Below, one piece after another: positions 2,037 to 45,266 of a DNA stretch of 64,000 bases; position 1 is the stretch's first letter, and each line of letters begins with the position of its first letter. The translations under genes and the position numbers were made by a program. The DNA lies in NCBI GenBank assembly GCA_965215165.1, contig CBDCCX010000006.1:3417097-3481096 (forward strand). The letters are read 5' to 3'. This stretch comes from Rhodothermales bacterium (lineage in GTDB: Bacteria > Bacteroidota > Rhodothermia > Rhodothermales > JANQRZ01). The notes beneath the pieces were generated by a model. The model worked only from the letters and a program-made list of their open reading frames with translations. It was not told where the DNA came from and searched no databases.

Positions 2037-3410
2037 GTGGCAAAGCCGAAAACCATCTTCACCTGCCAGGAGTGCGGCCACATCGCCCACCGCTGGATGG
2101 GCAAGTGCCCCGAGTGCGAGGCCTGGAACTCGTTCGTCGAGGAGACCGAGCGCTCGTCGGTCAAGGCCCCCGTCATGCAGATCGTCCCGACCTTCGGGCG
2201 CGGCACGACCGGCAGCAAGGCGCAGCGGATCACCGACGTCGAGGTCGCCGAGCAGCCGCGCTTGGTCACCGGCCTGGCGGAGTTCGACCGGGTGATGGGC
2301 GGCGGGATCATGATGGGCAGCCTGACGCTCGTCGCGGGCGACCCCGGCATCGGCAAGTCGACGCTGATGACCGAGCTGGGGCGGTTCCTGCCGGCGCACA
2401 CCGTGCTCTACGTCACCGGCGAGGAGTCGGCGCGCCAGGTCAAGCTCCGCGCCCAACGCCTCGGCGTCGACACGGGCGAGTTCTTCCTCTTGGCCGAGAC
2501 GAACGTCGAGGAGATCGTCGCCGCCGTCCAGGACATCGGCCCCGACGTCCTCGTGATCGACTCGATCCAGACCGTCTACCGGCCCGACCTGACGAGCGCG
2601 CCCGGCTCGGTCAGCCAGGTCCGGGAGTCGACCGCCGCGCTCCTCAGCCTGACCAAGCAGCTCGCGACCGCGACCTTCCTCGTCGGGCACGTCACCAAGG
2701 CGGGGGCCATCGCCGGGCCGCGCGTCCTCGAGCACATGGTCGATACCGTGATTTATTTCGAGGGCGACCGGCACCACGCCTACCGCATCCTCCGCACCGT
2801 CAAGAACCGCTTCGGCGCGTCGGGCGAGATCGGCCTGTTCGAGATGCGCGAGTCTGGGCTGCGCGAGGTCGAGAACCCGAGCGAGATCTTCCTCTCCGAG
2901 CGGCAGTACGGCGCGAGTGGCTCAGCCATCGTCTGCGCCGTCGAGGGGACGCGCCCGATCCTGTGCGAGATCCAGGCGCTCGTCACCCCGGCGAGCTACG
3001 GCACCCCGCAGCGGACGGCGACGGGCTTCGACCCGAAGCGGCTCCAGATGCTCCTCGCCGTCTTGGAGAAGCGCGAGGGGATGCGGCTCTCGCAGCAGGA
3101 CGTCTTTCTCAACGTCGCCGGCGGGGTTCGCCTCGATGAGCCGGCGGTCGACCTCGGCGTCGCGCTCGCCGTGGCTTCCAGCTTCCGCGACGTGCCGGCC
3201 GACAGCGGGACCGTCGTGATCGGCGAAGTCGGGCTGGGCGGCGAGGTCCGGGCCGTGAGCCGGATCGAGGCGCGCGCGGCCGAGGTGGGCAAGCTCGGGT
3301 TCGAGCAGATCGTGCTCCCGAAGTCGAGCGTCAAGGGCGCGAAGCTCCCCAGCGGCCTCAAGGTGCAGCCCGTCGTCCGGCTCGGCCAAGCGCTCGACGC
3401 GGTGCTCTGA
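2037..3410 (+). CDS. radA: DNA repair protein RadA/Sms
   Basis: CxxC..CxxC zinc finger, Walker A GDPGIGKST, KNRFG motif, Lon-like C-terminus. Confidence 0.97.
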   Translation: MAKPKTIFTCQECGHIAHRWMGKCPECEAWNSFVEETERSSVKAPVMQIVPTFGRGTTGSKAQRITDVEVAEQPRLVTGLAEFDRVMGGGIMMGSLTLVAGDPGIGKSTLMTELGRFLPAHTVLYVTGEESARQVKLRAQRLGVDTGEFFLLAETNVEEIVAAVQDIGPDVLVIDSIQTVYRPDLTSAPGSVSQVRESTAALLSLTKQLATATFLVGHVTKAGAIAGPRVLEHMVDTVIYFEGDRHHAYRILRTVKNRFGASGEIGLFEMRESGLREVENPSEIFLSERQYGASGSAIVCAVEGTRPILCEIQALVTPASYGTPQRTATGFDPKRLQMLLAVLEKREGMRLSQQDVFLNVAGGVRLDEPAVDLGVALAVASSFRDVPADSGTVVIGEVGLGGEVRAVSRIEARAAEVGKLGFEQIVLPKSSVKGAKLPSGLKVQPVVRLGQALDAVL

Positions 3411-3428
3411 AGGACGAAGCGCCCGTCG

Positions 3429-5738
3429 CTAGGCCAGAGCGTTCTCGTGGCCCGAAGAGCCGCAGAAGAGGCACGCGCTCCGCGTGGCCCGCACCATCTC
3501 GGCGACGAAGTCCAGGTCCGGCCCGGCCCCGTCGCGCCGCAGGCCCATCACGTCGATGTCCGACTGCGGGGCCTGCGCTACGCAGTCTTCGAACGGCCCC
3601 ACCATCACCTCGGAGCGCGCCGCTTCGGGGATGCGGGCCAGGTCGCGCAGCTCGTTCAGGTGCTCCCACGCTGCCTGCGCCTCGCCCTCGTCGGGGATGG
3701 CCGTGATGAGGTTCAGCTCGGCGTCCCACGCCTTCGCCAGTCGGAGCGCCGTCAGGATGCCGAGGTTGAGGTCCGAGCGGTCGAGGTAGTCCTGCATCGA
3801 GACGCGCGCCGGCCGGGGGCGGACCCACAGGTTGACGACCTTGCTCATCCCCAGCCCCGCCTCTCCGTGGAGCGCCAGCAGCATCACGCCGACGTCGAGC
3901 CGCCGGGTCTCCTTGACGATGATCCGCAGCTCGTCGTGGCGCTCGGGGTGGTGCGGGAGGTTGAGGAAGAGCACGTTCGGCGCGAAGAACGCGCTCCGCA
4001 GCGCCTGCACGCCGGTCACGATGCCCGTCGTGAAGCCTACCGAGTCGATCACCGCGCTCGTGGTCAGCACGTCGTTCTTGCGGAGCGTCCGGGCGAGGCG
4101 CTCGATGCGCGGCGTGAGGTCGGCGACGGTCTCCGTCGTGGCGACCCCGAGGAGCTTGACCGAGCCCTCGGGCCGGCACACGTCGATCAGCAGGCGGAGC
4201 TCGCCGCGCAGCGTGGCCGGGTCGAGGACCGGGACCAAGAGGCTCGGCTTCCAGGCCCGGCTCGCGGTCATGTCGAGGGCGATCACCTTGCCGGCGGCCC
4301 ACTCGGCGAAGGCCGCGAAGATGCCGCTGCGGACGCTCCCCGTGCGGGGGGCCACGCCGCGCCAGGTGATCCAGAAGTAGATCCCCGCCACGACGGCCAC
4401 GGCCAGCAGCCCGACGACGGGGTTGACGATGAACATCGCGAAGACGCATCCGAGCGCGCCGAAGAGCGGGACCACGCGCGGCAGGTTGAAGGTCGGGCGG
4501 AAGCTCATCAGCCCGAGGCTCGCCTCGGCCAGCATCACCACGTTGATGACGGCGTAGGTGATCAGGAAGAACATCGTGATCATCGGGGCGATCACGTTGA
4601 GGTCGCGCAGGAGCAGCGCCGCTAGGACAATCACACCCGTGACGAGCATTGCGCGGCGCGGCTCGCCGCCCGTCGTCTTCGCCAGCCAACCGCCGGCGGG
4701 CACGAGTCCGTCCTTGCCGAGGGCCTGCATGATCCGCGGCGCGCCGACGAGCGAGGTCAGCGCCGAGGAGAACGTCGCCCCGAGCAGCCCGGCGAGCACC
4801 ACCGGCCCCCAGAGCGCCTTGTCGATCATCACGGTGTAGTTCGAGACCAGCTCCTCGGGCGTCGCGGCGCGCGCGGTCCACACGGCCAGGAGGACGTAGA
4901 TCACGAGCGAGACGCCGATCGCCGAGAGGGTCCCGAGCGGGATGCTCTTGCGCGGGTTCTTGAGCTCGCCCGACATGTTGGCCCCGGCCATGACGCCAGT
5001 TGCGGCCGGGAAGAAGACGGCGAAGACGAGCCAGAAGTTGGTCCCCCGGAACCCGTCCTCGGGCGCGCCGGGGTAGCTCCCCCAATACTGAATCTCGCCG
5101 ACGCCACGGAGAAAGTCCGGCGCGGCGAAGATCGAGACGAGCGAGAGCGCGATCACGGCCATCACCGCGTACTGAATCTTGAACGCGAGGCTCGCCGAGA
5201 GGTAGGCGATCCCGAAGACGACGGCGAAGATCGCGAGGTCCACGACGAGCGCCGGGTGGTCCGGGAAGATCCAGGTCCAGCCCTCCCGGAAGCCGAAGAC
5301 GTACATCGCCACCGCCAGGCCTTGGGAGAGGTAGAGCGGGACGCCGACCGACCCGCCGATCTCGAACCCGAGCGACTTCGAGATGATCGCGTACGGCCCG
5401 CCCGCCCCGAGCCGGGTGTTGGTGGCGATCGACGAGAGCGACAGCCCGGTGCACAGCGTGATGCCGTTTGCGAGCGCGATGATGAGCAGCCCCCCGAGCA
5501 GCCCGGCGTTGCCGACCACCCACCCGAGGCGGAGGTACATGATCACCCCGAGGATCGTCAGCAGCGTCGGGGTGAAGACGCCGGCGAAGGTGCCGAAGAG
5601 CTTCGGGCCCTTCGGGAGCACGATGCCGCCCTCGCCGCCTGGCGGGTCGAGCTCGGTCGAGGGGTCGCCGTCGGTGGGCACAGCGCCTATCGGCGGAGGG
5701 GCGTCGGCGGGGACGCGGGGGGCGTCGGGGTCAGGCAT
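3429..5738 (-). CDS. Cation-chloride cotransporter (SLC12-like) APC family transporter
   Basis: FGTFAGVFTPTLLTILGVIMYLRLGWVVG and FFPAATGVMAGANMSGELKNPRKSIPLGT signatures, ~12 TM plus large cytoplasmic C-terminal domain. Confidence 0.85.
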   Translation of the reverse strand: MPDPDAPRVPADAPPPIGAVPTDGDPSTELDPPGGEGGIVLPKGPKLFGTFAGVFTPTLLTILGVIMYLRLGWVVGNAGLLGGLLIIALANGITLCTGLSLSSIATNTRLGAGGPYAIISKSLGFEIGGSVGVPLYLSQGLAVAMYVFGFREGWTWIFPDHPALVVDLAIFAVVFGIAYLSASLAFKIQYAVMAVIALSLVSIFAAPDFLRGVGEIQYWGSYPGAPEDGFRGTNFWLVFAVFFPAATGVMAGANMSGELKNPRKSIPLGTLSAIGVSLVIYVLLAVWTARAATPEELVSNYTVMIDKALWGPVVLAGLLGATFSSALTSLVGAPRIMQALGKDGLVPAGGWLAKTTGGEPRRAMLVTGVIVLAALLLRDLNVIAPMITMFFLITYAVINVVMLAEASLGLMSFRPTFNLPRVVPLFGALGCVFAMFIVNPVVGLLAVAVVAGIYFWITWRGVAPRTGSVRSGIFAAFAEWAAGKVIALDMTASRAWKPSLLVPVLDPATLRGELRLLIDVCRPEGSVKLLGVATTETVADLTPRIERLARTLRKNDVLTTSAVIDSVGFTTGIVTGVQALRSAFFAPNVLFLNLPHHPERHDELRIIVKETRRLDVGVMLLALHGEAGLGMSKVVNLWVRPRPARVSMQDYLDRSDLNLGILTALRLAKAWDAELNLITAIPDEGEAQAAWEHLNELRDLARIPEAARSEVMVGPFEDCVAQAPQSDIDVMGLRRDGAGPDLDFVAEMVRATRSACLFCGSSGHENALA

Positions 5739-5770
5739 CGGTCACGGGATCGTCTTACGAATCACGGCGC

Positions 5771-6889
5771 TCAGCCGCCGCCCGTCGTATCGGCGGGGCT
5801 TGCTTGCCGCAGGTGCTGAAGCTCCTCGTCGATGAGCTCGCGGAGTTGCCGGCGCAGCACCTCCCGATCCGTCGCCGGGGCAGGAGCCGCCCGGTAGCCC
5901 TCGGCCGCCTCGGGGTTGAGCACGATGAACTCCACGCGGCGGTTGAGCGTGCGGGTCGTCGGGTTCGTGTTGGGCACGATGGGCTGGCTCTCGCCGTAGC
6001 CGTGTGCCTCGATGCGCGCCGGGCCGAGCGTCGGAAAGGCGCGGAGGAGATATTCGCGCACGGCCTCCGCGCGGCGCTGCGAGAGCTGGAGGTTGTAGGC
6101 CTCCGAGCCGATGTCGTCGGTATAGCCGGCGATGGCGATGAACAGGTCGGGGTAGCGCGTGAGCACCTCGCCCACGACGTCGAGCGTCCGCTGGGCCGAG
6201 GGCAGGAGGACCGACCGGTCGAACTCGAAGTTGACCGTGGTGGTGCGGAAGAGGCCGGTCTCGAGGATGGCGCGCTCGACCTCCTCGACCGTCGCCGGGC
6301 CGGCGGACACGCCGAGGCTGGGGGTGCCACCGGTGGGCAGGGATGGAGTCGGGGCCAGGCCCTGCGCCCCTCGCTGCTGAGGAAGCACGAACGTGCCGGG
6401 GGCTTGACCCGACGGTAGGACGTAGCTCGGGCTCCCGCTCGGCGCAGCGTAGGAGGACCGGCCACGGTCGGCTAGGAGGGGGATGAGCTGGCCGAGCTTG
6501 CTGTCGAGGTCCCGGCGCAGCGCGAGCTCCATGCGGAGGAGGTCCACGCGGCTGAGCGGTTCGCCGTCCGCCGCCGCCTCGCGCAGCAGGTCCTCCTCGG
6601 TCAGGTCCTCCGGCAGGGCATCCGACGTGGACCGGCGCGTGCCGGGGCGCGAGCGGATACGAACGCCGCCGGGTTTGCCGGAGCGGAAGTAGAAAACCCC
6701 ACGCCCGTTCGGGAGCGGGACGGTCGTCACCCGGTCGGACAGCCCCACGGGGTAGAGCACGTCGGGCGCGGTCGTCGTGGTCTGCGCCGCGCTGGAGTCG
6801 GGCGGTGCAGTCTGAGCGCGTGCCGTGTTCGTGAGGCCAGGAGCGGCGAGCAGCGCGAGGAGGAGCCAGGGAAGAAGGCGTCGCATCAT
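5771..6889 (-). CDS. Secreted OmpA-like peptidoglycan-binding domain protein
   Basis: Signal peptide (ARA-Q); VNFEFDRS, IAGYTDDIGSEAYNLQLSQRRA, NRRVEF OmpA_C motifs. Confidence 0.9.
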   Translation of the reverse strand: MMRRLLPWLLLALLAAPGLTNTARAQTAPPDSSAAQTTTTAPDVLYPVGLSDRVTTVPLPNGRGVFYFRSGKPGGVRIRSRPGTRRSTSDALPEDLTEEDLLREAAADGEPLSRVDLLRMELALRRDLDSKLGQLIPLLADRGRSSYAAPSGSPSYVLPSGQAPGTFVLPQQRGAQGLAPTPSLPTGGTPSLGVSAGPATVEEVERAILETGLFRTTTVNFEFDRSVLLPSAQRTLDVVGEVLTRYPDLFIAIAGYTDDIGSEAYNLQLSQRRAEAVREYLLRAFPTLGPARIEAHGYGESQPIVPNTNPTTRTLNRRVEFIVLNPEAAEGYRAAPAPATDREVLRRQLRELIDEELQHLRQASPADTTGGG

Positions 6890-7020
6890 GTCAGGAACGG
6901 TCGAGGTCCGGCGGTGGGATAGGACGGCGTGCTCGGCGGCCGGGTGGGCCCCGGACCGCCGAGCGGTGTCGCCGCGCCTCCTGAGTGAGCCTCCGGTGTG
7001 GGGCGGCTCACGGGAGTGGC

Positions 7021-9420
7021 CTACCGGAAGAGGAAGCGGTAGCCGGCGATGAGCCGGTTGAAGTCCCCGAAGCTGGCGGTCTGGAACTCGGTGAAGACGC
7101 GGTTCCGGCCGACGGTGTACTCGGTGCCGATCACGAGGTTGATCGTGAGCCTGGAGCCGGGCAGGTCGTCTTCCTCGTCGTCCCCATCGTCGCTGGAGCC
7201 GCTGTCGTTGAAGCCGAGAATACCGAGGCCGAGACCGGCATACGGAGCGAAGTCGACGTTCGGGCTGGGGAGCGGGAAGGCCGCGTTCACGTTGAGCGCG
7301 AACGAGCGCTCCCCGCCGAAGCCGAGCGTGAACTCGGGGTAGTAGCGGAGGGTGCTGGCCCCGCCGGGGCGGTAGTCCGCGCGAAGGCCGAAGACCGCCT
7401 GGGTCGCTCCCGAGCCGAAGCCGAAGCCCACCACGGGGTAGGCCGCCACGAAGCCGCCGGGCGTCGCGTTGACGACGGCCGACGTCGTGGAGACGACCTC
7501 GCCCTCCGGCGTCACCGCGACGACGTTCGGCTGCGCGGACTGCGACGGCACGACGATGGGCTGGTTGTTCTGCCGAGCCGTGTTCTGCTGGATGATCAGG
7601 TCGCGCAGGTCGTCGATCTCGTCGCTGAGGCGGTCCTCGATGCGGCGTTCCAAGAGCTGCATTTCGGTAGCCGACACGTCGCCGCCGCTCTCCGCGTTGA
7701 GCTGGCGCAGCAGGCGCTCCTCGACGCGGCGCTCGATCTCGGCCACGTCCTCGGTGGTGGCGGCGTCGCCCTGAGCCGCGAGCGACTCGCGCAGCGTCTC
7801 GCGGACGATCTCGCGGAGGTCGGTCTCGGTCGCAGCCCCGCCGCTTGCGGCAGCGGCCACGTCCTCGCCGTCGTAGACGGACTCGATCTGGACCCCGCCG
7901 GGGTCGCCGTAGCGGACGTAGAGCTCGCCCTGCTCGGGGAGCGGGACGGTCACGATGCGGTCGCCCTGCGCGGTGCGGACCTCGCGGCCTACGACGACCG
8001 GCACCCCGGCCGTACCGCCGCCGGTCACGAGGCCGGCACGCCGCTGCTCGGTGGTGAGGCGGGCGACAGCGAGCGAATCGCCCTCGGCCTGCGCTCGGGC
8101 GATCTCGGCTGCGAGCTCGGCCTCGGCGGCCGCGCGTTCGGCCGCGATCTGGCGTTCGAGCTCGGCCTGGGTCACGACCGGGATCGGGGCCGTGACGTCG
8201 CCGCCGAGGCCGAAGGAGACCCCGGCACGGTACTGCGGACTGAGGAAGACGTCCTCGGTCTGGCTGATGTCGCCCTCGTCCTGGGTGCTCATCAGCAGGC
8301 CGCGGACCTCACCGTGGAGCCGGAGCCGGTCGCCGAGCGGGAGTTCGAGGCCGCCGCCGCCGAGCGCGAAGGGCCGGTCCTCGGAGCGCGCGGCGAAGGG
8401 TCCGCCGCCATCGGCCTCGTTGTAGTCGCTGAGCACGTCGAGGTAGCCGGCCCCGAAGGTCAGGAACGGGACGATGCCCTGGCCCGAGGCAAGCCGGAGC
8501 TTGGCGTCGCCGCCGTACATCTGGATCGGCTCGAAGTCCGTCGGGTCGTCGGTGTCCACGCCGCGCGCGAAGAAGCCCCGCAGCCCGACGAGCGGCCCGA
8601 GGTTGACGCCGACCTCGGCCCCGACGAACGACTGGTCGCGGTAGGTGAAGGCATCGTTGAAGTTGACGCGGCTGTAGAACGGCTCGATCTGGAGGCTCAC
8701 GCCGCGCAGCCCGTCCGAGAACTGGTCGAGGAAGGCGCGGTCCACGTCGGAGAGCTCGCCCGGCCGCCGGCCGCCGAGGTAGAGCTGGAGCGCCGCGCGG
8801 AACGAGATGTTGTGGACGAGGGTCTGGTTGAAGTCGTCGAGGGTGAGGTTCGTCTCGGCGAGGTCGCCCGGGGTGAAGAACGTCGTGCCGGGGTTGTAGC
8901 GGTAGGCGAGGTCCTCAGCCTGGAGCGTCAGCGTGTAGCGGTCGGCGAGCGAGACCTGGAGGCCGGCCCCGCCGGTGAGGTAGATGTTGCGGGTCGGCTC
9001 CTTGTCCTCGACGTCGAAGCGGATGAGGCCGGCCCCGGCGGTGAGGAACGGGATGAGCGAGCCGCTCCCGAGGTTCAGCTTGAGCTCGCCGCCGTAGCGC
9101 TGGAGGTCTACCCCGCGCGGGTCGAGCGAGGTCAGCATCGAGTCGAGCTCGGCGTCCTCGATCCCGGAGAAGTCCGAGAAGTCCGTCTCGAAGTCGGAGC
9201 CGAAGAGGTAGAGCCCAGTGAGCTCGACGTACTCGCCGAAGCTGAGCCCGACGCCCCCGCCGTAGAGGAAGCCGTCGTCGAGGGCGGCGTCGCCGTCCCA
9301 CCGCACGTAGCTGCCGGACGGGACGAGGCGGTAGCCGACGCCGGAGACCTGGGCCGCTGCATCGGCAGCGAGCAGGCTCAGGCAGGCAGCCACGAGAGGG
9401 AGGAGGCGGAGGTGTTTCAT
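7021..9420 (-). CDS. Multi-domain outer membrane beta-barrel protein (three OmpA/OmpW-like barrels with coiled-coil linker)
   Basis: Signal peptide AAA-Q; two tandem repeats of amphipathic beta strands (IPFLTAGAG / VPFLTFGAG), helical charged linker, third barrel ending AGYRFLFR. Confidence 0.7.
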   Translation of the reverse strand: MKHLRLLPLVAACLSLLAADAAAQVSGVGYRLVPSGSYVRWDGDAALDDGFLYGGGVGLSFGEYVELTGLYLFGSDFETDFSDFSGIEDAELDSMLTSLDPRGVDLQRYGGELKLNLGSGSLIPFLTAGAGLIRFDVEDKEPTRNIYLTGGAGLQVSLADRYTLTLQAEDLAYRYNPGTTFFTPGDLAETNLTLDDFNQTLVHNISFRAALQLYLGGRRPGELSDVDRAFLDQFSDGLRGVSLQIEPFYSRVNFNDAFTYRDQSFVGAEVGVNLGPLVGLRGFFARGVDTDDPTDFEPIQMYGGDAKLRLASGQGIVPFLTFGAGYLDVLSDYNEADGGGPFAARSEDRPFALGGGGLELPLGDRLRLHGEVRGLLMSTQDEGDISQTEDVFLSPQYRAGVSFGLGGDVTAPIPVVTQAELERQIAAERAAAEAELAAEIARAQAEGDSLAVARLTTEQRRAGLVTGGGTAGVPVVVGREVRTAQGDRIVTVPLPEQGELYVRYGDPGGVQIESVYDGEDVAAAASGGAATETDLREIVRETLRESLAAQGDAATTEDVAEIERRVEERLLRQLNAESGGDVSATEMQLLERRIEDRLSDEIDDLRDLIIQQNTARQNNQPIVVPSQSAQPNVVAVTPEGEVVSTTSAVVNATPGGFVAAYPVVGFGFGSGATQAVFGLRADYRPGGASTLRYYPEFTLGFGGERSFALNVNAAFPLPSPNVDFAPYAGLGLGILGFNDSGSSDDGDDEEDDLPGSRLTINLVIGTEYTVGRNRVFTEFQTASFGDFNRLIAGYRFLFR

Positions 9421-9547
9421 CGGAGGCGGGAGTTCAGATTGGAGAGGTGGGGCCGGAGGGCGCAGGCGTACTCCACCCGTGCGGCGCTCGGCGGCCGTCG
9501 AAGAGAAGGGACGAAACCGTACTGGTCGGGGAACGGAGAGGGCCGCG

Positions 9548-10078
9548 TTACTCGGTGCGGCGCACGAGGCGGATCGTCAGCGTGCCCCCGACCGCGTTCA
9601 GGTCTTCGTACTCGACGGGATCGAAGGCTTCGAGGTCGACGGTCCGCTCTCCCTCGAAGAGGAGGACACCGTCGCCGTCGCGCTCGAACGGGATGGTGTT
9701 GCTGAGCAGGAGGCTGGCGAGCCGGTCCTCGGCGTTGGCGAACGTCAGCCGGAGCTCGGCGGCCGTCACCGTGAAGGTGCCCGAGATCCGGTCCGACGGG
9801 GCATTCTCGAACTTGTAGCGGAGGTCGGCCTCGCCGCTGCCGAACAGCTCGACGAACGTGTTGGCCGCCACGAGGGTGTCGAGCACGTTCGCGTCGGCGA
9901 TCCCCCCGGCGTTCGGGTCGAAGGAGAACTCGGTGAAGTCGTAGATCCCCTCGACGTCCTCTGGGGAGGGCGGATCGACGGGGTCCGAGGAGTCGCAGCC
10001 GACGGTGCCGGCGAGCAGCACCGCTGCGGTAACGCCGAGGAGCGCGGATCGGAAGGGAAGTGTGAGCATGGCGGGCAT
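9548..10078 (-). CDS. Lipoprotein, lipocalin-like beta-rich
   Basis: Lipobox TVG-C followed by DSSD; EGIYDF / GTFTV beta motifs. Confidence 0.7.
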   Translation of the reverse strand: MPAMLTLPFRSALLGVTAAVLLAGTVGCDSSDPVDPPSPEDVEGIYDFTEFSFDPNAGGIADANVLDTLVAANTFVELFGSGEADLRYKFENAPSDRISGTFTVTAAELRLTFANAEDRLASLLLSNTIPFERDGDGVLLFEGERTVDLEAFDPVEYEDLNAVGGTLTIRLVRRTE

Positions 10079-10156
10079 AGGTCAGGGGCTGGGAGTGGGT
10101 TAGGGCTGCTCGGGCGACTGGTGGCACCGAGCCCTGCAATCTAAGCCACCGCGTGG

Positions 10157-10642
10157 CTACTGGACGCGGGTGGTCACGTGCGTCTCCATATCTTCCTCGC
10201 CCTCGGGAAAGTAGAGGTCCATGACGTCGAGGTTTACCTCAACTACCCGGAGGCCGGTCATCGTCTCGATCCGGTCGGCGACGTTGCGCCGCACGGCGTC
10301 GGCCACGGCGGGGATGCTCGCGCCGTACTCGGCGATGATCCGCACGTCCACGGCCGCCTCCCGCTGCCCGACCTCGACGCTGACCCCGAGGTCGTGCATG
10401 TCGCTCCGCGTGATCGACTTGGCGAAGGAGGTCACGGTCTGGCCCGTGTCGTAGGGCACCAAGCGGTGGACGCCCTCGATCTCGCGCACGGCGAGGCCGG
10501 CGATCTTGGCGACGACCTGGTTGTGGACGATCGTGCGCCCGTCGTCGCCGATGAGCACGGAGGCCCCGGCGGGGATGTCGATTTGGTCGTTGCGCGTGGT
10601 GACGCTCGTGGTGGAGTCGGACTTGTCGGTTTTGGTAGCCAT
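10157..10642 (-). CDS. Asp23/Gls24 family envelope stress protein
   Basis: VVAKIAGLAVREIEGVH, GVSVEVGQREAAVDV, EYG..IP, MTGLRVVEVN motifs; start at ATG 10642. Confidence 0.9.
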   Translation of the reverse strand: MATKTDKSDSTTSVTTRNDQIDIPAGASVLIGDDGRTIVHNQVVAKIAGLAVREIEGVHRLVPYDTGQTVTSFAKSITRSDMHDLGVSVEVGQREAAVDVRIIAEYGASIPAVADAVRRNVADRIETMTGLRVVEVNLDVMDLYFPEGEEDMETHVTTRVQ

Positions 10643-10686
10643 GACGGTCAGGGGGTAGGAGCCGGATGTCCGGCGGTGGGTGAGAA

Positions 10687-11004
10687 TCAGGAGAGGCGGC
10701 GGAGGGTGTCCCATGCTCCGGCGACATCGAGTCCGCCCGAGCGGGCCGCGTGGACGAGGCCGCCGAGCACCGCGCCGAGGCCGGCACAGAGCGCGACGAC
10801 GAGCGCCGCCCCGAGGCCGACGAGGATCAGCAGCACGCCGAAGACGAGGCCGACAGCGAGGCCCACGAGTGGCGCGACCGAGCGGGGCGGGGGTACGACC
10901 TGTGGCATGAGCGGCGGCCGGCCGGTCGGTGTCGGATCGGCGCGCGGCGCGTCGAGCGGGTGCGGACGCACGGCAGGGTCGGCAAAGGGGTCTCCGGGTC
11001 CCAT
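10687..11004 (-). CDS. Small integral membrane protein (DUF2273-like)
   Basis: Two Gly-rich TM helices (LVGLAVGLVFGVLLILVGLGAALVVALCAGLGAVLG); position between amaP and asp23. Confidence 0.65.
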   Translation of the reverse strand: MGPGDPFADPAVRPHPLDAPRADPTPTGRPPLMPQVVPPPRSVAPLVGLAVGLVFGVLLILVGLGAALVVALCAGLGAVLGGLVHAARSGGLDVAGAWDTLRRLS

Positions 11005-11015
11005 AGCGGGTTCGG

Positions 11016-11627
11016 TTAGTGGACGCGGGTGCGCGCGTCGAGGGCGAAGAGCTGCACGTCGAGGTTGGTGGCGACGACTGGCAGGCCGGTGTGGCGCTCG
11101 AGTGCCTCGGCGAGCAGCGGCTTGAGGCGGCTCGCCACGGCGGGAAGCTCGGCGTCGGGCGTGACCACCAAGCGGCAGGCGAGGTGCCAGCCGTCGCGCC
11201 GGAGCCGGAGCACCGGGGCCGCCTCGCGCACCGCCGGGTCGCGCTCGGCCGTGTGGACCACGAGCGCGTAGAGGCTCCGCATCGAGACCGTCACCTCGCC
11301 GCTGCCGTAGAGGCCGTTGCGGGTATGCCCACTCAGGCGCACGCGCCGGCTCCGCTCCTGCTGCTCGGCCGTCCGCGCGAGCGCCAGCCCGAGCAGCCCG
11401 ACCCCGGTGAGGAGCACACCGAGACCACCTGCCGCCCACAGCCACCGCTGCCGCAGGGGGTACTCCGTCAGGTCGAGCGCGAGCGCGAGGCCGCCGCCGC
11501 CGACGAGGCGGAGCGGCCCGAGCGCGTCGAGAGCATGGGCCAGCACCACGACGCCGCCTGCGACGAGGGCCAGCCCGACGAGGGCGACGACGAGACGCCA
11601 GAGCGTGTGGAGGAGGCGGAGGTTCAT
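11016..11627 (-). CDS. Alkaline shock response membrane anchor AmaP-like protein
   Basis: Two N-terminal TM helices, GEVTVSMRSL motif, Asp23-like C-terminus ending LERHTGLPVV. Confidence 0.7.
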   Translation of the reverse strand: MNLRLLHTLWRLVVALVGLALVAGGVVVLAHALDALGPLRLVGGGGLALALDLTEYPLRQRWLWAAGGLGVLLTGVGLLGLALARTAEQQERSRRVRLSGHTRNGLYGSGEVTVSMRSLYALVVHTAERDPAVREAAPVLRLRRDGWHLACRLVVTPDAELPAVASRLKPLLAEALERHTGLPVVATNLDVQLFALDARTRVH

Positions 11628-11739
11628 CGAGGTGGGGTGACCGGGCGAGGGAAGCCGCGCGAAGGCAAAGTGCAACAGCGCGGCGTGCCCGGCATGAGTC
11701 TAGGGTAAGTCCTGGATGAGGATCGCATTAAGGATCGAG

Positions 11740-12144
11740 TCAAAAGACAGTCTCTTCCGAATCGGTCACGTCCACGATGTGGAGCCGTAGGTCGAGCGGC
11801 GGGGCCTCGGGGAAGTGCGCCCACGCGGCGCGGAGCCGCTGATCGGCAGCGCGGAGCGTGGCCCGGAGCCGCTCCGTCAGCGCCGCCACCGTAAGCACCA
11901 GGCCCACCTCCGCCCGCACGCTCTCGCCGGGGCCGGCGGTGAGGGCGACGCCGACCACGGCCGGGCCGCGCCCCCGCGTCTGGAAGCGCGCCGAGGCCGA
12001 AAGCCCCGCGATGTCATGCCCGTCGAGCGCGGCGTGGCGGAGCGCGGCGGCCGCGAGCAGCCAGCCGTCCTCGGCCCCCAGCCCGCGCACCGGCGGGGCG
12101 TCCCGCAACACGGGCGCGCGGCGTATCGAGGGCTGCGCCGTCAC
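11740..12144 (-). CDS. Hypothetical protein, divergent Asp23-like
   Basis: GTG start overlapping upstream TGA (GTGA); C-terminal LDLRLHIVDV resembles Asp23 terminal strand. Confidence 0.5.
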   Translation of the reverse strand: MTAQPSIRRAPVLRDAPPVRGLGAEDGWLLAAAALRHAALDGHDIAGLSASARFQTRGRGPAVVGVALTAGPGESVRAEVGLVLTVAALTERLRATLRAADQRLRAAWAHFPEAPPLDLRLHIVDVTDSEETVF

Positions 12145-12644
12145 GAGGGGTGCGGGGGCTGTGTCGGCGAGGCCGGAGCCGCGCCCGTCGGGTCCACGAC
12201 GTCCACGACCTCGACCGTCACCGGGCCGGGTTCCAGCCCGAGGGTGTCTTGGAGCGCGGCCTCGATGCTCGCTCGGACGCGCTCGGCCAGGCCGAGCAGG
12301 TCTTCGCCGTAGCGCGCCACGATGCGGACCTCCAGCGCGGGGGCGGTTTGCCCGTCGAGCGTGACGAGTTCGGCGCGGCGCTCGGCCAGCCACCGCGCCG
12401 TCGCCGCCCCCGCCGCTGAGCCGAGCGGGGCTCCAAGCGCGACTCCCGCCGGCCCCGCCTGCGCGAAGCCCACGGCTCCCCCGATGAGGCCGCCGACGAG
12501 TGCGCCCCCCACCAAGCTCTGCGTGTCCATCACGCCCTGCACGTCGCCGGCCGCGACGGTTACGAGGTGGTCGAGCACGCCGGCCGATAGGCGGAGGTGT
12601 CCGCTCACCGAAGGCTGATCGAGAAGCATGTCGGGGTGGGTCAT
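12141..12644 (-). CDS. Asp23/Gls24 family protein with inserted glycine zipper
   Basis: GHLRLSAGVLDHLVTVAAGDVQGV and IVARYGEDL..TLGL..VTVEVVDV; ATGA coupling to upstream gene. Confidence 0.7.
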   Translation of the reverse strand: MTHPDMLLDQPSVSGHLRLSAGVLDHLVTVAAGDVQGVMDTQSLVGGALVGGLIGGAVGFAQAGPAGVALGAPLGSAAGAATARWLAERRAELVTLDGQTAPALEVRIVARYGEDLLGLAERVRASIEAALQDTLGLEPGPVTVEVVDVVDPTGAAPASPTQPPHPS

Positions 12645-13426
12645 CGGGGAGAGGTCGTCTGCGGCTGAGCGGCACCGGTGGGCGGCACGAGCCGGTAGCC
12701 GACGCCACGAACGGTTTGGATTACGCCAGCGAAGCCGAGAGCCCTGAGCTTCCGCCGGAGCGTGTAGACGTAGACGTCCACCGAGTTCGAGCCGGGGTCG
12801 AAGTCCAGCCCCCAGACCCGCTCGAGGACCTCGTCGCGGGAGCAGCATGCCCCGGCGTGGTCGAGGAAGTAGGCTAGCAGGTCGAACTCCTTGAGCGTCA
12901 GCTCGAGCCGGTGCCCGGCGACGGTGCAGGTGTGGGCGCGCCGGTCGAGCCGGATCGGCCCGGCGGCACCTGGTCCCTCGGCTGCGACCACCGGGGCTCC
13001 GGTGCGCGAGGCCGTGGGCGCGCTGCGGGCGGCGGTGCGGCGGTAGGCCACGACGAGGGCGCGGAGCAGGCCAGGCTGGACGGGCAGTCCGCACGCCGCG
13101 TCGGCCCCGGCGTCGAGCGCGGCCGCTTGATCGCTGGGGCCACCTTCGCAGAGCGCGATGAGCGGCCCGCCGACGGCCCGCGCCTGCGCCACAGCGTCAG
13201 GGGCTCCGCCGCTCGCTCCCCACCACAAGAGGACCGCGTCGAGACCGCCCGCCGGCGGCCGGCCGAGCGCGTCCACGCGGTGCGGAGCCGGGCACCACAC
13301 CTGCACGATGGCCAGGGCCTGCGCCCGCATCTCCGGGGCCGCCGCCACGGCGAGCCGCAACGGAGCCTCGTGAACCTCCGTTGTGGCAGGCCCGCCGGGG
13401 AGTCGGTAGAGTGCGGCCTGCGGCAT
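12641..13426 (-). CDS. OmpR/PhoB family regulator with degenerate receiver domain
   Basis: Intact wHTH (LTLKEFDLL, SNSVDVYVYTLRRKL, IQTVRGVGY); receiver lacks phospho-Asp and conserved Lys. Confidence 0.85.
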   Translation of the reverse strand: MPQAALYRLPGGPATTEVHEAPLRLAVAAAPEMRAQALAIVQVWCPAPHRVDALGRPPAGGLDAVLLWWGASGGAPDAVAQARAVGGPLIALCEGGPSDQAAALDAGADAACGLPVQPGLLRALVVAYRRTAARSAPTASRTGAPVVAAEGPGAAGPIRLDRRAHTCTVAGHRLELTLKEFDLLAYFLDHAGACCSRDEVLERVWGLDFDPGSNSVDVYVYTLRRKLRALGFAGVIQTVRGVGYRLVPPTGAAQPQTTSPR

Positions 13427-13591
13427 GGGTGCGCCCGACGATGGGAAGGGGGAGGGGAACGTCGCAAAGCTCTCGCGTCTGGCTGCGCCGAACATGAGGG
13501 CCTGATTAATCCTCGCTCATGCGGGAGCCCCGTTCTTCCCTGGAAGAGCAGTCACCCCATGACATGGTGCGGATGTGCCCAGCCTACTCCC

Positions 13592-13656
13592 TTGAGGCCA
13601 TCGCCTTCGAAGCCGATGGCCTCAAACAGTCTCTACGGTCAAACAGTCTCTACGGT
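13592..13656. repeat. 34-bp palindrome followed by a 17-bp tandem duplication (TCAAACAGTCTCTACGG x2); probable MITE remnant
   Basis: TTGAGGCCATCG-CCTTCGAAGC-CGATGGCCTCAA; AACAGTCTC is the reverse complement of the GAGACTGTT end of the element at 22687. Confidence 0.6.
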
Positions 13657-13708
13657 GTTGCCGTCGCTCAGCTCGGGCAGGCGCTCGAGGTCGGCGCGGA
13701 AGCTCGCG

Positions 13709-15757
13709 TTACCTCGTGAGCGTCATGCGCCCCGTCTGAACCGCGTCGCCGACGACGAGGCGATAGAGATACGTTCCGGCGGCGAGGCCTGAGGCGTCGA
13801 ACGTGGCGCGGTGCGTGCCCGCCTCGACCCACCCGTCGACGAGCGTCGCCACCGTGCGGCCCAGCACGTCGTACACCGTAAGCCGAGCCTCCGTAGCCTC
13901 CGTCACGTCGAAGGTGAGCGTCGTGCGCTGGGCGAACGGGTTTGGCGCGGCGATTAGGGTGGTGGGGGGTGCAGAGCGAGCGGCAGCGAAGAAGTCCTGC
14001 TCCACCTCGAACGCGGTCCCAGCGCTGACGGCACCGCCGGAGACGGTCAAGGTGAAGGACTCGGTGTCGCAGGCCACTCCCTCGTCGAAGTCGCCGAGGT
14101 CGAGGGCGAGCGCATACGCCCCGGCCGGGGCGGCTCCGGGAACGCGGACGCGGAGGTCGCGCGTGATGGTTCCGCCTGCCGGGAGCGTCCCGCTGCCGAG
14201 CCGGAGCGTCGCGCTCACGGGTCCCGTCGCCCTCAGCCACAGATCGAGCGGGGCCGGAGCCGGGCCGTCGTTCGCCACCGAGACGGTGAAGGTGAGGTTC
14301 TGTCCCGGCGCGGGCGTCGCGTCGTCGAGCGTCGCGGTGAGGCGCTGCGCGCAGCCGGAGGCCGGGAGAACCGTGAACGTGCGCGCCCCGGCGGCCCCGA
14401 CGAGCGGAAAGCGCTCGGTCCGCCCGGAGGCATCGGCGGCGGAGAAATAGTAGGCGACCTCGCCGCCTTGCTGCGGGAGCGGGAGCGCGGCGGCGAACGT
14501 ATCGCCGCCCGCAGGTTGGAGCGCGAGCGTGTCGAACGCCGCCCCGTCCGTTTGGTAGATCAGGAACAGCTCCTCGCTCAGGAGGGGCTGCCCGCTGTAG
14601 GGAATGATCTCGACATCGAGCCGGATCTGGGGCTGGTACGGGACGGGGCCGGCGAGGGGCTGGTGCTGGAGCGAGAGCAGCTCGGTGTCGGCGACCTCTT
14701 TGATGCGGCAGTGCAGCGCGTCGGTCGACAGCCAGCTCCCGGTGAAGCCGAGGATCTCGTAGCCCGGCATCGCGGCCCGGTACACGTCGAGCGCGTCGTC
14801 GTCCCAGGAGGAGTTCGAGATCGGGACGTAGACCCGCTCGTTGACGATGAGGGCGTTGGTGTAGGGCTGCCCGCTCGGGCTGTAGACCCGGAAGACTTGG
14901 TAGGGCGTCCCGTAGGCGCTCGGCTGCGAGGCGAAGTAGTCGGCCACGGCCTCGTAGTCGTCGTAGCGCCAATCTGAGGTCGGGACCTCGGTGATGACGA
15001 CCTTGTCCACGTCGAGAAACTTGCCCCACGTGTCGATGTGCTGGATGTAGGACGCCTGCGGGTCGTCGGTGACGTGGTAGGTGTCGATCCCGAGGTAGTC
15101 GCGCATCTTCTCGAGCACGAGTGCCTCGTTGAACCCGTTCTCGGCCCAGACGAGGTCGGTCGAGGCGGAGATGCCCCAGCCGTCGGTCATGTAGTTGCCG
15201 CCGGTGTGGACGAGGTCCATCGCGTAGAGCGGCGAGCCGAGGAACGAGGCGAGGGCGTCGGGAACCGCGTTGTCGTCCGGGCGCGGGCGGTTGTAGATGA
15301 AGTCGACCACGCTGATCTCGCGGTCCCCGTCGGCGACGTAGAACGGGCCGTAGTCGCGGGTCCAGATCGAGTTGGTCCGGGCGCGGAGGAACGCGGCGTT
15401 CGTCATGGTCACGCCGGCGTTCTGGTAGGCGCTCCGAGCCTGGCTCTCCTGGGACGCGCTCGCCACCGTCGTGATGACGCGGACGTGCTCGGAGAGCGCC
15501 GCCACCAAGGCCAGCGGGATGCCGAGGGGATAGCGGACGAGCACGGCCTCGCTGCGCTCGAACTCGGCGATGTTGCGGATGGGGCTCGGCGGCGGGGCCG
15601 AGCGCGCAAAGCCCTGCCCGATCTCGTCGCGGCGCAGCTCCTCCTCCGGCGTCATGGTTTGGGGGAGCGGATCGGACTCGTACCAGGGCGTGTCCTGGGC
15701 GCGAGCGGCACCGGCGGTGACGAGGAGGAGCGCGACGGCGAGGAGGCGAGCGGACAT
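13709..15757 (-). CDS. Secreted agmatine/peptidyl-arginine deiminase family protein with T9SS C-terminal domain
   Basis: WTRDYGP, GGN, HID, LHC catalytic motifs; signal peptide ARA-Q; C-terminal PNPF..VYDVLGR..LAAGTYLYRL sorting domain. Confidence 0.88.
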   Translation of the reverse strand: MSARLLAVALLLVTAGAARAQDTPWYESDPLPQTMTPEEELRRDEIGQGFARSAPPPSPIRNIAEFERSEAVLVRYPLGIPLALVAALSEHVRVITTVASASQESQARSAYQNAGVTMTNAAFLRARTNSIWTRDYGPFYVADGDREISVVDFIYNRPRPDDNAVPDALASFLGSPLYAMDLVHTGGNYMTDGWGISASTDLVWAENGFNEALVLEKMRDYLGIDTYHVTDDPQASYIQHIDTWGKFLDVDKVVITEVPTSDWRYDDYEAVADYFASQPSAYGTPYQVFRVYSPSGQPYTNALIVNERVYVPISNSSWDDDALDVYRAAMPGYEILGFTGSWLSTDALHCRIKEVADTELLSLQHQPLAGPVPYQPQIRLDVEIIPYSGQPLLSEELFLIYQTDGAAFDTLALQPAGGDTFAAALPLPQQGGEVAYYFSAADASGRTERFPLVGAAGARTFTVLPASGCAQRLTATLDDATPAPGQNLTFTVSVANDGPAPAPLDLWLRATGPVSATLRLGSGTLPAGGTITRDLRVRVPGAAPAGAYALALDLGDFDEGVACDTESFTLTVSGGAVSAGTAFEVEQDFFAAARSAPPTTLIAAPNPFAQRTTLTFDVTEATEARLTVYDVLGRTVATLVDGWVEAGTHRATFDASGLAAGTYLYRLVVGDAVQTGRMTLTR

Positions 15758-16007
15758 GATGGCGCGGGCGAGAGGATGTCGGAATAGGGACCTAGGGGGC
15801 GCAGAGTATACAGCCGAATCGGTGCGTTCCCGATCCCGCCGCTCTCTACCTTCGGGAGAGGGCATTCGGCAGAGGCGGCCTCGCTCCATCGGTCATCGGG
15901 CGGCGAGGGTATCTTCCCCACGCCGGTCGCCGAGCAGGGGGCCGGCCCTCGCACAATATCCCCGAAGCGGCCCCGTTACCCGGCCGTGCGCCGCGAAGCC
16001 CAGCATC

Positions 16008-16601: not shown

Positions 16602-16630
16602 CCTCTGCCTCTGCTCCTACCGCTACCCCC

Positions 16631-17689
16631 ATGCACGACGAGTTGAACGCCCTCCGCCATGTCTACGGCGAGGAACCCGCCGCGCCGCTCGGCCCCGAAG
16701 ACGAGACCGAAGCCGCCCAGCTAGCCGCCCTCAAGGCTGCGCTCGACGCGCTGCCCTCGCAGCGCCCGGCCCCCGCCGCCCTCGAGGCGGTGCTGTCCGC
16801 CGCCGCCGAGGCCCCGGAGGCGAGCCTTGCGCCGGTCCGCACCGTCTACGACGCGGACCCGGTCCCGCTCACCACGCCCGAGGCGAAAGCCGAAGCCGCT
16901 GCCTTCGCCGAGGTGAAAGTCGCGCTCGACGCACTCCCTCGGCAGCGCCCGGCCCCGTCGCTCGTCGATGCCGTCGTGTCGGCTGCGGCAGCGCCCACCC
17001 GCTCGCGCCCCACGCCTGTGGTGGCAGCGGCGAACCGTGCCGCCGACCGGCCGGCCGTCGGTCGGTCCGGCGCTCGTCGCGGAGCGGTGGTTGCCCTCAG
17101 CGCGGCGTTCGCGCTTGTGCTCGCCGTGGGCGTCGGGCTGTGGCCGGACGGGGAGGTGAGCGGGCCGCCCGCCGTCGCAGAGCAAGCGATTCCATCCGGC
17201 GAAGGGGCTCCGGACGCGCCGGTACTCGCGGACGCGGTCCCGGTCGGTGCAGCGACGGCTGAGCCCACCGCGTCGACGGCTGCACCGGCCGGCGTCGCGC
17301 CGCCCACTGCCCGCGCGAGGCGGTCGGCTCCGGCCGTGTCAGCTTCGGCCGCATCGGCTCCGGCGGCGGGGTCGGCCGCGTCCGGGTTCCAGACCGTGTC
17401 CGCGCGCCGCGCCGCGGCGGCCGAGGCCGCGCCTGCCGAGGCGGACGAGGTTACCGAGCCCGCGTCGCTCGCCGAGGCGGACGAGGTTACCGAGCCCGCG
17501 TCGCTCGCCGAGGCGCTTCCGCTCGCCGACGGCGACGAGGAGTTGCAGGTGCTCTACCTCCGTGTGCAGGAGATGCAGGCCGGACAGGTCGGCGTCGGGT
17601 GGGACGGCCCGGCGGTCTCGCTCGGGGCCGCGCCGGACTCGACCCCCGCCGCCCACTCCGGCTGGATGCAGGTGCGCGTGCAGCGCTAG
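16631..17689 (+). CDS. Putative single-TM anti-sigma factor
   Basis: Immediately downstream of ECF sigma; cytoplasmic duplicated helical module, one TM, Ala/Pro-rich outer part. Confidence 0.55.
   Translation: MHDELNALRHVYGEEPAAPLGPEDETEAAQLAALKAALDALPSQRPAPAALEAVLSAAAEAPEASLAPVRTVYDADPVPLTTPEAKAEAAAFAEVKVALDALPRQRPAPSLVDAVVSAAAAPTRSRPTPVVAAANRAADRPAVGRSGARRGAVVALSAAFALVLAVGVGLWPDGEVSGPPAVAEQAIPSGEGAPDAPVLADAVPVGAATAEPTASTAAPAGVAPPTARARRSAPAVSASAASAPAAGSAASGFQTVSARRAAAAEAAPAEADEVTEPASLAEADEVTEPASLAEALPLADGDEELQVLYLRVQEMQAGQVGVGWDGPAVSLGAAPDSTPAAHSGWMQVRVQR
17435..17515 (+). repeat. 36-bp in-frame tandem duplication (AEADEVTEPASL x2)
   Basis: GCCGAGGCGGACGAGGTTACCGAGCCCGCGTCGCTC repeated exactly. 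Confidence 0.9.
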
Positions 17690-45124: not shown

Positions 45125-45266
45125 AGCCTGTTAATTTGGAGCTTAGCGCCCGACCGTCGTTCGGGTATGTGATTTGTTGAAGCGTCCGGTTTGGAGGCCG
45201 GCCCGCGCCGCGTGTGCGGTGCCCGGCCCTCCCGTCCCGCGACCGCCATCTCACTTCGCCCCCGCT

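Follow-up and report, generated by a model that had tools for sequence, protein, structure and literature searches.

The 64,000-nucleotide stretch of DNA analysed here (the window), from a bacterium of the order Rhodothermales, carries a cluster of six genes that encode an Asp23 protein, two further proteins resembling it (g2 and g3), an AmaP-like membrane anchor, a DUF2273-like small membrane protein, and a regulator of the OmpR/PhoB family. This Asp23-family gene cluster, as observed, is confirmed to be real and more than a product of chance. We consider it probable, on balance, that the six genes make up a self-contained scaffold cassette with a regulator of its own, which was acquired long ago and lost many times since. 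The new elements here are the regulator, whose receiver domain seems to have become a pseudo-receiver, and the repeats that are specific to the cassette.

According to PMC6954212, AmaP anchors Asp23 at the membrane of Staphylococcus aureus, Asp23 forms filaments, and the deletion of either amaP or asp23 induces cell-wall stress genes. The same paper describes the family as exclusive to Gram-positives and associates other Asp23/Gls24 proteins, from Bacillus subtilis, Enterococcus (Gls24), and Streptococcus, with lipid metabolism, bile/acid stress, and cell morphology (PMC6954212). The S. aureus asp23 gene depends on the sigma factor SigB, as stated in PMC11350273.

Results

Gene content and predicted topology

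The six genes are co-directional and fill positions 10157-13426 in the order regulator, g2, g3, AmaP-like, DUF2273-like, Asp23 (Table 1). The stop codon of the regulator overlaps the start of g2 in an ATGA (12644-12641), that of g2 overlaps the start of g3 in a GTGA (12144-12141), and a gap of 112 bp separates g3 from amaP. A preliminary description of the locus had given the same gene order, shared direction, and couplings, and both the gene calls and the overlaps agree with it. The G+C content of the region is unremarkable (72-73% vs ~70% across the window). An in-frame ATG at 13495 would extend the regulator to 284 amino acids (aa). It was rejected as the start, since it falls within a conserved DNA motif and the region shared by the orthologous proteins begins at 13426. 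A scan for consensus promoters and terminators between 5500 and 14000 detected no promoter-like site and a single terminator-like one, no more than expected from shuffled sequence, and is uninformative for this lineage.

The identification of Asp23 is firm: the protein matches PF03780 with 91.5 bits (cut-off 28) over positions 3-106 of the 108 in the model, and is the only strong match to this family in its genome. The assignment of g2 is also firm, with 33.3 bits to PF03780 (cut-off 28) over its C-terminal half only, weak matches to glycine-zipper families, and 96.7% in a comparison of its profile with that of Asp23 (hhalign, 119 columns), where both halves align around an insert. This insert comprises ~45 Gly/Ala-rich, hydrophobic residues between the first strand and the hairpin, exactly at the low-confidence loop of the Asp23 model, and the hydrophobic segment of g2 spans residues 43-61. 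A search of 5.8 billion proteins with the g2 profile, which scores only candidates having words in common with the query, returned 24 proteins at E<=1e-5; the five rows whose source name bears an organism are all Rhodothermales or 'Bacteroidetes', and the g2 type appears to be confined to a small group of Rhodothermales.

The product of g3 has no match in Pfam, and its profile is weakly related to those of Asp23 (36%) and g2 (46%; hhalign). Its AlphaFold (AF2) model (predicted local distance difference test 83.9) has the element order H-E-E-E-H-E, as does the Asp23 model, and genes at the same position in loci labelled Chloroflexota and Hyphomicrobiaceae match PF03780 over its full length with sub-threshold scores (18.7 and 23.4 bits). 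A Foldseek search of the g3 model against the PDB gave nothing at E<=1e-3, with generic alpha/beta domains only, and the Asp23 profile found no match by sequence among solved structures. We conclude that g3 is probably a very divergent protein of the Asp23 fold.

The AmaP-like protein aligns with positions 3-166 of the 166 in NF033218 with 43.8 bits; this is less than the equivalog cut-off of 55, and we therefore call it AmaP-like and not a certified equivalog. The same model is matched at E<=1e-3 by all 18 aligned members of the family, and the architecture is that of AmaP, with N-terminal hydrophobic segments (residues 12-30 and 65-83) followed by a C-terminal Asp23-like domain, in a gene two positions upstream of asp23. 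The support for the DUF2273-like protein is marginal: its score to PF10031 is exactly the cut-off (25.4 bits for both), and 3 of its 13 orthologues reach this model at E<=0.01, every one below the cut-off. Its size, its hydrophobic core (around residues 44-88), and its position fit DUF2273. The identities given in the preliminary description thus stand for Asp23 and g2, lie near or below curated cut-offs for AmaP and DUF2273, and reduce for g3 to the order of its fold elements and weak profiles. Asp23, g3, and the regulator have neither a hydrophobic segment nor a signal peptide. Since no protein of the cassette carries an export signal, the system should act on the cytoplasmic side, and as a whole it is predicted to lie within the inner membrane or at its cytoplasmic face, as AmaP and Asp23 do in S. 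aureus (PMC6954212).

The regulator and the phased repeats

The regulator contains a winged-helix DNA-binding domain (Trans_reg_C, 85.8 bits, cut-off 26.2), and no match to the receiver domain (PF00072, Response_reg) was found in it even at E<=1. In an alignment of 13 orthologues, the N-terminal domain lacks the acidic pair after the first strand and the conserved Asp that ends the third, an invariant Cys takes the Thr/Ser position, and a hydrophobic residue takes that of the Lys, these hallmark positions being assigned by eye from the receiver consensus. The receiver domain thus seems to be degenerate, with loss of the phospho-acceptor Asp. The genes called beside the regulator include no histidine kinase. 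Atypical OmpR/PhoB-family regulators devoid of the phosphorylation site form a class of their own, the NblR-like regulators, with which this one shares the winged-helix output and a receiver-like domain without the conserved Asp pocket. NblR is its best NCBIfam match, but with a score (78.6 bits) far under the cut-off (300) and a match restricted to the C-terminal part.

When used alone as a query in 285 genomes of the order, the N-terminal domain matched over its full length only 7 regulators, all linked to cassettes. Shorter matches correspond to related regulators, some of them in genomes lacking the cassette, so that the family of regulators looks native to the order. Two close relatives (217-224 bits with the regulator profile), at 3184-3966 of locus L158 (G031:C49) and 3382-4209 of locus L159 (G011:C1), have the same 'CPPPH' stretch and no Asp23 cassette nearby.

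Short direct repeats phased by 11 bp lie upstream of the regulator (P1) and in the gap between g3 and amaP (P2). Allowing at most one mismatch, TTAAT-N6-CTCAT has exactly 2 matches in the window, P1 and P2, where 0.07 are expected. It occurs upstream of the regulator and of amaP in all eight cassettes of group A (the window and 7 others, from families f1, f10, and f21), against a background of 4 matches in 422,786 bases of other loci. In all six group-A loci that were printed, the window included, a (C/T)TT(G) box is found at both sites exactly 24 nt past the last CTCAT. The cassettes of group B, with a divergent or convergent regulator, have another version of the repeat, TTAA[ATG]-N6-TTAA[ATG], upstream of g2 and of asp23; it is present in 4 of 5 loci, at 1-4 places each, and has 2 matches in 913,711 bases of background. 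In two of these loci (L038 and L044) phased repeats also lie between the regulator and the gene of a neighbouring lipoprotein. Dimers of the OmpR/PhoB type classically bind direct repeats spaced by one helical turn. Given this phasing and their cassette-specific distribution, the repeats are most likely the operators of the regulator.

A perfect 17-bp tandem repeat (TCAAACAGTCTCTACGG, 2.1 copies, 13622-13656) lies between the stop codon of the adjacent deiminase gene and the regulator, and is followed on the coding strand by a GC-rich inverted repeat; as a candidate operator it was rejected, for it lacks conservation among the other cassette loci. The S. aureus SigB site pattern (GTTTAA-N14-GGGTAT, taken from PMC11350273) has no match in the cassette; with <=2 mismatches allowed, the window contains one match only, outside the cassette (16623-16648). 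An OmpR-type regulator within the cassette, and no SigB-pattern match there, bear out the earlier proposal that these genes are under a regulator different from sigma-B.

Distribution and genomic neighbourhood

PF03780 was detected in 14 of the 285 genomes of the order, a lower bound since the scan missed a divergent mini-variant in genome G016, and these are spread over nine of its 105 genera and eight of its 27 families. With the window's genome included, five of 41 close relatives are positive, and none of four congeners is. In a sample of the phylum only three of 401 genomes are positive, all from within the order. Elsewhere, PF03780 was matched in Thermus, Deinococcus, and Thermotoga, among 14 control genomes; of 301 genomes sampled from the phylum of a genome labelled Myxococcota, 18 have it. 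The mini-variant of G016 (L157, G016:C138, 2406-5858) consists of an atypical regulator and two short Asp23-like genes (PF03780, 29.7 and 20.6 bits), followed by a mechanosensitive-channel gene (MS_channel_1st_1, four stretches). It has phased TTAA repeats before the regulator and between the Asp23-like genes, and adjoins the same lipoprotein and outer-membrane protein (OMP) locus as the cassettes described below.

In each of the 13 other carriers of PF03780 within the order, the genes g2, amaP, DUF2273-like, and asp23 are arranged in the same sequence, and g3 is present in nine of them (it was not found in G428, G430, G022, and G496). The regulator adjoins the cassette in 12 of the 13, the contig of the last one ending before; it is co-directional and upstream in eight, as in the window, divergent in one, and convergent and downstream in three. 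At the end of one cassette (L036, G496:C29, 4752-5828) there are two tandem asp23 genes, 58-60% identical to that of the window.

A homologue of the 799-aa OMP encoded next to the window's cassette lies downstream of asp23, in the same orientation, in 12 of the 13 other carriers and across 8 families. A detectable lipoprotein homologue follows asp23 in nine of the 13, and six of those with enough flanking sequence also have an OmpA-family gene. Such OMP genes occur in 93 of the 285 genomes of the order, and most copies are without a cassette. Lipoprotein homologues are found at Asp23-negative loci too, and no cassette gene or regulator was found in the 12 cassette-negative OMP loci that were fetched. 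The regulator adjoins the cassette and is absent from these loci; therefore, it travels with the cassette. On the present evidence, we regard the OMP locus as a constant neighbour of the cassette rather than one of its components. The 799-aa OMP itself has terminal stretches of beta-barrel type separated by a long, charged region resembling a coiled coil, and its homologues are usually flanked upstream by the gene of a small lipoprotein and downstream by one of the OmpA family.

In the window, the nine genes from the OmpA-family gene through the regulator (5745-13718) form an 8-kb block for which the four congeners (G001-G004) have no DNA match, with flanks matching at 77-93%. In G001 and G004 both flanks were matched on different contigs, and there is thus no clean site of insertion or deletion. 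The open reading frames and Pfam matches adjoining the block show no signs of mobile elements, no dedicated scan for tRNAs or repeats having been made.

Relatives and history of the cassette

Relatives were sought with an Asp23 alignment in one genome per species, in a pattern-seeded search, and the best 80 of 259 confirmed loci were used for ranking. Among these, the copies of other Rhodothermales are 55-72% identical to the Asp23 of the window, whose identity to its orthologues from the order is 56-73%. The nearest relatives outside the order bear the labels Myxococcota, Bradymonadales, 'Deltaproteobacteria' or 'Proteobacteria' (47-63%); they are followed by Armatimonadota and Chloroflexota and then by Actinomycetota (41-52%), with no Bacillota among the best 80. 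We made a quick, unrooted maximum-likelihood tree of the 88 Asp23 rows scoring more than 100 bits with the Asp23 profile, in which the 15 Rhodothermales rows form one clade (support of 81 in the Shimodaira-Hasegawa-like approximate likelihood ratio test, SH-aLRT). Its sister, with 15 rows bearing Myxococcota, Bradymonadales, or Pseudomonadota labels, has a support of 84, and the node uniting both clades one of 99; the Actinomycetota lie across the midpoint, beyond the longest internal split. A careful tree of AmaP (31 rows, also unrooted) joins the same two sets at 100/99 and neither shows nor rejects the monophyly of the Rhodothermales (approximately unbiased, AU, test, p 0.49). Three of the loci (L049, L057, and L060) come from metagenome-assembled genomes (MAGs) named 'uncultured Enterobacterales/Enterobacteriaceae bacterium', and their Asp23 clusters with Myxococcota-labelled sequences; the labels look unreliable.

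Within the order, the closest cassette is that of G007 (AmaP 77%, Asp23 72-73% identical), which is of the same family and is the closest carrier both by taxonomy and by the housekeeping protein RadA (85%). The trees of the cassette and of RadA agree in placing the window with G007 and f1 near f10, and the divergences of the cassette across the 8 families are similar to those of RadA. A remnant of the cassette was found in G547, a cassette-negative genome whose genus has four carriers. There, the frameshifted 3' end of an asp23 gene (L130, G547:C1, 6984-7110) lies directly upstream (~50 bp) of the lipoprotein gene. It covers approximately residues 110-151 of Asp23 in two reading frames within the 130 bases before that gene, ends where the intact asp23 ends, and was recovered by tblastn with all five Asp23 queries (E 2e-5 to 4e-4). 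The cassette was therefore deleted in this lineage, which makes at least one loss, and points to loss as the cause of much, or at least part, of the patchiness of the cassette.

Altogether, the cassette looks like an old resident of the Rhodothermales at a fixed locus, and like a diderm-lineage branch of a widely scattered family. The preliminary description had called the operon Gram-positive-type, and this is not borne out: the nearest relatives outside the order are labelled as Myxococcota, Bradymonadales, or Deltaproteobacteria (52-63% Asp23 identity), of diderm lineages, the Actinomycetota lie across the Asp23 tree from the Rhodothermales, and the presence of PF03780 in Thermus, Deinococcus, and Thermotoga weakens the term further. 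Its proposal of a horizontal acquisition fares better in part. The rarity in the phylum is real (3/401, 14/285, and 0/4 congeners), and the findings as a whole point to an acquisition long ago and many later losses; no sign of a recent gain by this genome appears in the G+C content, the proximity of G007, the single neighbourhood in 8 families, or the relic of G547.

Other features of the window

The window also encodes FlgI (P ring), OmpA-family, and OMP_b-brl proteins, in agreement with the diderm host assumed at the outset. The cargo of a type IX secretion system (T9SS) that had been cited in the same context is less certain. Its gene, next to the regulator (13709-15889, minus strand), encodes a 726-aa protein in which a peptidyl-arginine deiminase domain of Porphyromonas type scores 93.4 bits and a T9SS-type sorting domain at the C-terminus falls just short of its cut-off (26.3 vs 27); the deiminase gene is kept in the congeners at 79-83% DNA identity. 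A flagellar cluster extends over 26000-58000 (FliP, FliM, MotA/B, FlgE, FlgD, FliI, FliF, FliD, flagellins, FlgK, and FlgI), and within it lies the gene of a sigma-54-dependent response regulator (45174-46682).

Table 1. Positions of the cassette genes, the candidate operators, and the neighbouring genes in the window.
Feature	Positions	Strand	Description
P1 (cis-element)	13494..13509	-	TTAATCAGGCCCTCAT; two pentamers 11 bp apart, immediately upstream of the regulator
Regulator, OmpR/PhoB family	13426..12641	-	261 aa from the conserved start
g2	12644..12141	-	167 aa; Asp23 fold with glycine-zipper-like insert
g3	12144..11740	-	134 aa; small, divergent, probable Asp23-fold protein
P2 (cis-element), g3-amaP gap	11688..11731	-	four phased 11-mers, TTAATGCGATC / CTCATCCAGGA / CTTACCCTAGA / CTCATGCCGGG; first 16 bases are TTAAT-N6-CTCAT
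AmaP-like membrane anchor	11627..11016	-	203 aa
DUF2273-like small membrane protein	11004..10687	-	105 aa; alternative start 10908; Pro-rich N-terminus
Asp23	10642..10157	-	161 aa; no hydrophobic segment, no signal peptide
Lipoprotein (neighbour)	9548..10078	-	176 aa; signal sequence followed by Cys
Outer-membrane protein (neighbour)	7021..9420	-	799 aa; OMP_b-brl, PF13505, 71.7 bits
OmpA-family protein (neighbour)	5771..6889	-	372 aa; PF00691, 73.2 bits; left end of the 8-kb block

Discussion

The explanation that we favour gives a part to each of the six proteins. By analogy with S. aureus, the AmaP-like protein would span the inner membrane twice and present a cytoplasmic Asp23-like domain, which would tether soluble oligomers of Asp23 to the inner face of the cytoplasmic membrane. 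The product of g2, with its own glycine-zipper membrane insert, and the small, soluble product of g3 would be further Asp23-fold subunits of the same scaffold, and the DUF2273-like protein would be a small membrane partner. The regulator, having lost its phosphorylation site, would most likely bind the 11-bp-phased TTAAT/CTCAT repeats at two promoters, and the genes would accordingly be transcribed as two units, regulator-g2-g3 and amaP-DUF2273-asp23. As for its history, the cassette may have entered an early member of the order, or have been already there, from a pool shared with Myxococcota-type cassettes; it would then have settled beside the lipoprotein/OMP locus, and most lineages would since have lost it. 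At least one move between members of the order may have taken place as well.

A number of observations weigh against this explanation or parts of it. The phased repeats could instead be promoter elements for a sigma factor, and the cassette of G496 (locus L036) shows neither of their two versions. The scores of the AmaP-like and DUF2273-like proteins fall below, and exactly on, their cut-offs, and the fold call of g3 comes from a matching succession of secondary-structure elements and from weak profile scores instead of a structural superposition. The carriers are a lower bound, given the mini-variant of G016. The monophyly of the Rhodothermales has moderate support in the Asp23 tree (81) and none either way in that of AmaP; the trees were made from the 80 best loci, selected by pattern and without Bacillota, and as they are unrooted the direction of transfer is not readable from them. 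The congeners lack the whole 8-kb block and have its flanks on different contigs, so that gain and loss are indistinguishable within the genus. In the tree of the cassette, f21 is sister to f10 (100/100), whereas the single-gene tree of RadA joins f1 and f10 without f21 (99/97); the AU test on the cassette rejects the latter grouping (p 4e-5), which was named after the tree had been seen. Not all of the history of the cassette is therefore vertical, and this conflict, of one marker and a grouping chosen post hoc, hints at one transfer within the order.

How much the cassette owes to transfer, and from where, is what separates the competing accounts of its history. That an asp23 operon of Bacillota or Actinomycetota was gained horizontally by this genome or its recent ancestors, and put afterwards under a new regulator, is disfavoured by the present data and seems to us very improbable. 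It would account for the absence of PF03780 from the four congeners and nearly all of the phylum sample, for the 8-kb block without DNA match in the congeners, and for the order amaP-DUF2273-asp23, which is that of the S. aureus operon. Yet the closest outside relatives are MAGs of diderm lineages, the Actinomycetota are separated by the longest split of the tree, no Bacillota are among the best 80 loci, the G+C content (72-73%) is like that of the rest of the window, and the same cassette, regulator, and neighbours are found in 8 families at RadA-like divergences. At the other extreme, descent from the common ancestor of the phylum, or of the Fibrobacterota-Chlorobiota-Bacteroidota (FCB) bacteria, with no horizontal transfer at any stage, would fit the fixed chromosomal position within the order and the documented loss. 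We nevertheless hold it for improbable: the phylum sample has PF03780 in 3 of 401 genomes and in none outside the order, and the sister group belongs to another phylum in which the family is sparse too (18/301). The survey of PF03780 does not show an operon widespread and vertically inherited in FCB bacteria, which by the preliminary description would have refuted its own reading, but a cassette confined to one order and sparse there. Repeated transfer of the cassette or of the 8-kb block within the order, by recombination at the conserved OMP locus, could also be the main cause of the patchiness. This is possible, if doubtful, and draws on the grouping of f21 with f10 against the RadA tree (AU p 4e-5), on the different outer contexts of the block in the window and in G007 together with its absence from 8 of the 10 genomes of their family, and on the flanking OMP gene (93/285 genomes) as a target for recombination. 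The relic of G547 requires at least one loss, however, and, f21 aside, the relations of the cassette and of RadA agree where resolved (the window with G007, f1 near f10). RadA is also a single marker, in whose tree f21 is on a long branch.

The other matter to decide concerns the limits of the system. The cassette and the genes of the lipoprotein, the 799-aa OMP, and the OmpA-family protein might be one envelope-spanning unit, co-regulated by the atypical regulator. Their adjacency and shared orientation in 12 of 13 other carriers from 8 families speak in favour of this, as do the phased repeats between the regulator and the lipoprotein gene in two group-B loci (L038 and L044), the retention by G016, at the same OMP locus, of the regulator with a pair of short Asp23-like genes, and the lack of the whole 9-gene block in the congeners. 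We find it unlikely all the same, for the OMP locus is mostly without the cassette (93 vs 14 of 285 genomes), the regulator was not found at any of the 12 cassette-negative OMP loci fetched, the cassettes of group A have no motif upstream of the lipoprotein gene, and in group B the regulator gene interrupts co-transcription. A more elaborate version, which we deem quite unlikely, would see in the cassette the cytoplasmic half of a stress module that spans the envelope and is peculiar to diderm Rhodothermales: the phosphorylation-independent regulator, with its conserved Cys at the Thr/Ser position, would directly sense an envelope or redox cue, bind the phased TTAAT-type repeats, and co-ordinate an inner-membrane scaffold of four Asp23 paralogues with the lipoprotein, the 799-aa OMP, and the OmpA-family tether. 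The reading we retain, a self-contained cassette of six genes with constant neighbours, leaves these outer-membrane genes outside the system.

The comparison with known systems shows what is shared and what is particular to this cassette. With the S. aureus locus it has in common an AmaP-type anchor, a small membrane protein, and Asp23, co-directional, all facing the cytoplasm, and in the gene order of S. aureus (amaP, a DUF2273-type gene, asp23). It differs from it by its own atypical OmpR-type regulator and the lack of a SigB-type site, by the two additional Asp23-fold genes (g2 and g3), by an AmaP that scores 43.8 where the cut-off is 55, and by its diderm host. The clusters labelled Myxococcota, Bradymonadales, or 'Deltaproteobacteria' (L047-L062) have the same core of asp23, amaP, and DUF2273-like genes and form a joint clade with those of Rhodothermales, but asp23 comes first in 5 of the 7 loci showing all three genes (it is last in L059 and L061), and the hidden Markov models of the regulator, g2, and g3 matched nothing there. 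A gene for a sigma factor of the extracytoplasmic function (ECF) type is nearby in 6 of the 25 loci scanned outside the Rhodothermales, all of Myxococcota type (L047, L051, L058, L060, L061, and L062), which suggests another regulatory solution for the same core module. The clusters of Actinomycetota (Nonomuraea and Streptosporangium, L082-L118) also contain several Asp23-fold genes, a DUF2273-like gene, and a weak AmaP-like gene, and some of their second copies have an insert at the same loop as g2; they are set apart by the identity of Asp23 (41-52%), a place on the far side of the tree, another gene order, and no OmpR-type regulator seen. The proteins of Bacillus subtilis, Enterococcus (Gls24), and Streptococcus share PF03780 with the cassette, and none of them is known to have been described with this regulator or with the partners g2 and g3. 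Public annotation already calls several of the genes studied here 'Asp23/Gls24 family', and our literature search, mostly without subscription journals, did not turn up any paper on Asp23 from these diderm groups. The added value of this analysis lies in the pseudo-receiver regulator, the candidate operator, the additional Asp23-fold subunits, and the constant outer-membrane neighbours.

Our study indicates that the restriction of this family to Gram-positives does not hold as a generalisation, since a complete Asp23/AmaP module is found in two diderm phyla. All of its parts are predicted to face the cytoplasm, and its function should therefore be independent of a thick wall or of the absence of an outer membrane. 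Its patchy distribution looks like the result of recent horizontal transfer but stems at least in part from loss. With a regulator of its own and a short candidate operator, the regulation and function of such a module become testable outside pathogens, the cassette being present in two records whose titles name cultured strains, Rubrivirga sp. IMCC45206 and Roseithermus sacchariphilus. Were the envelope-spanning module to exist, it would link the state of the inner membrane to the attachment of the outer membrane or to vesiculation.

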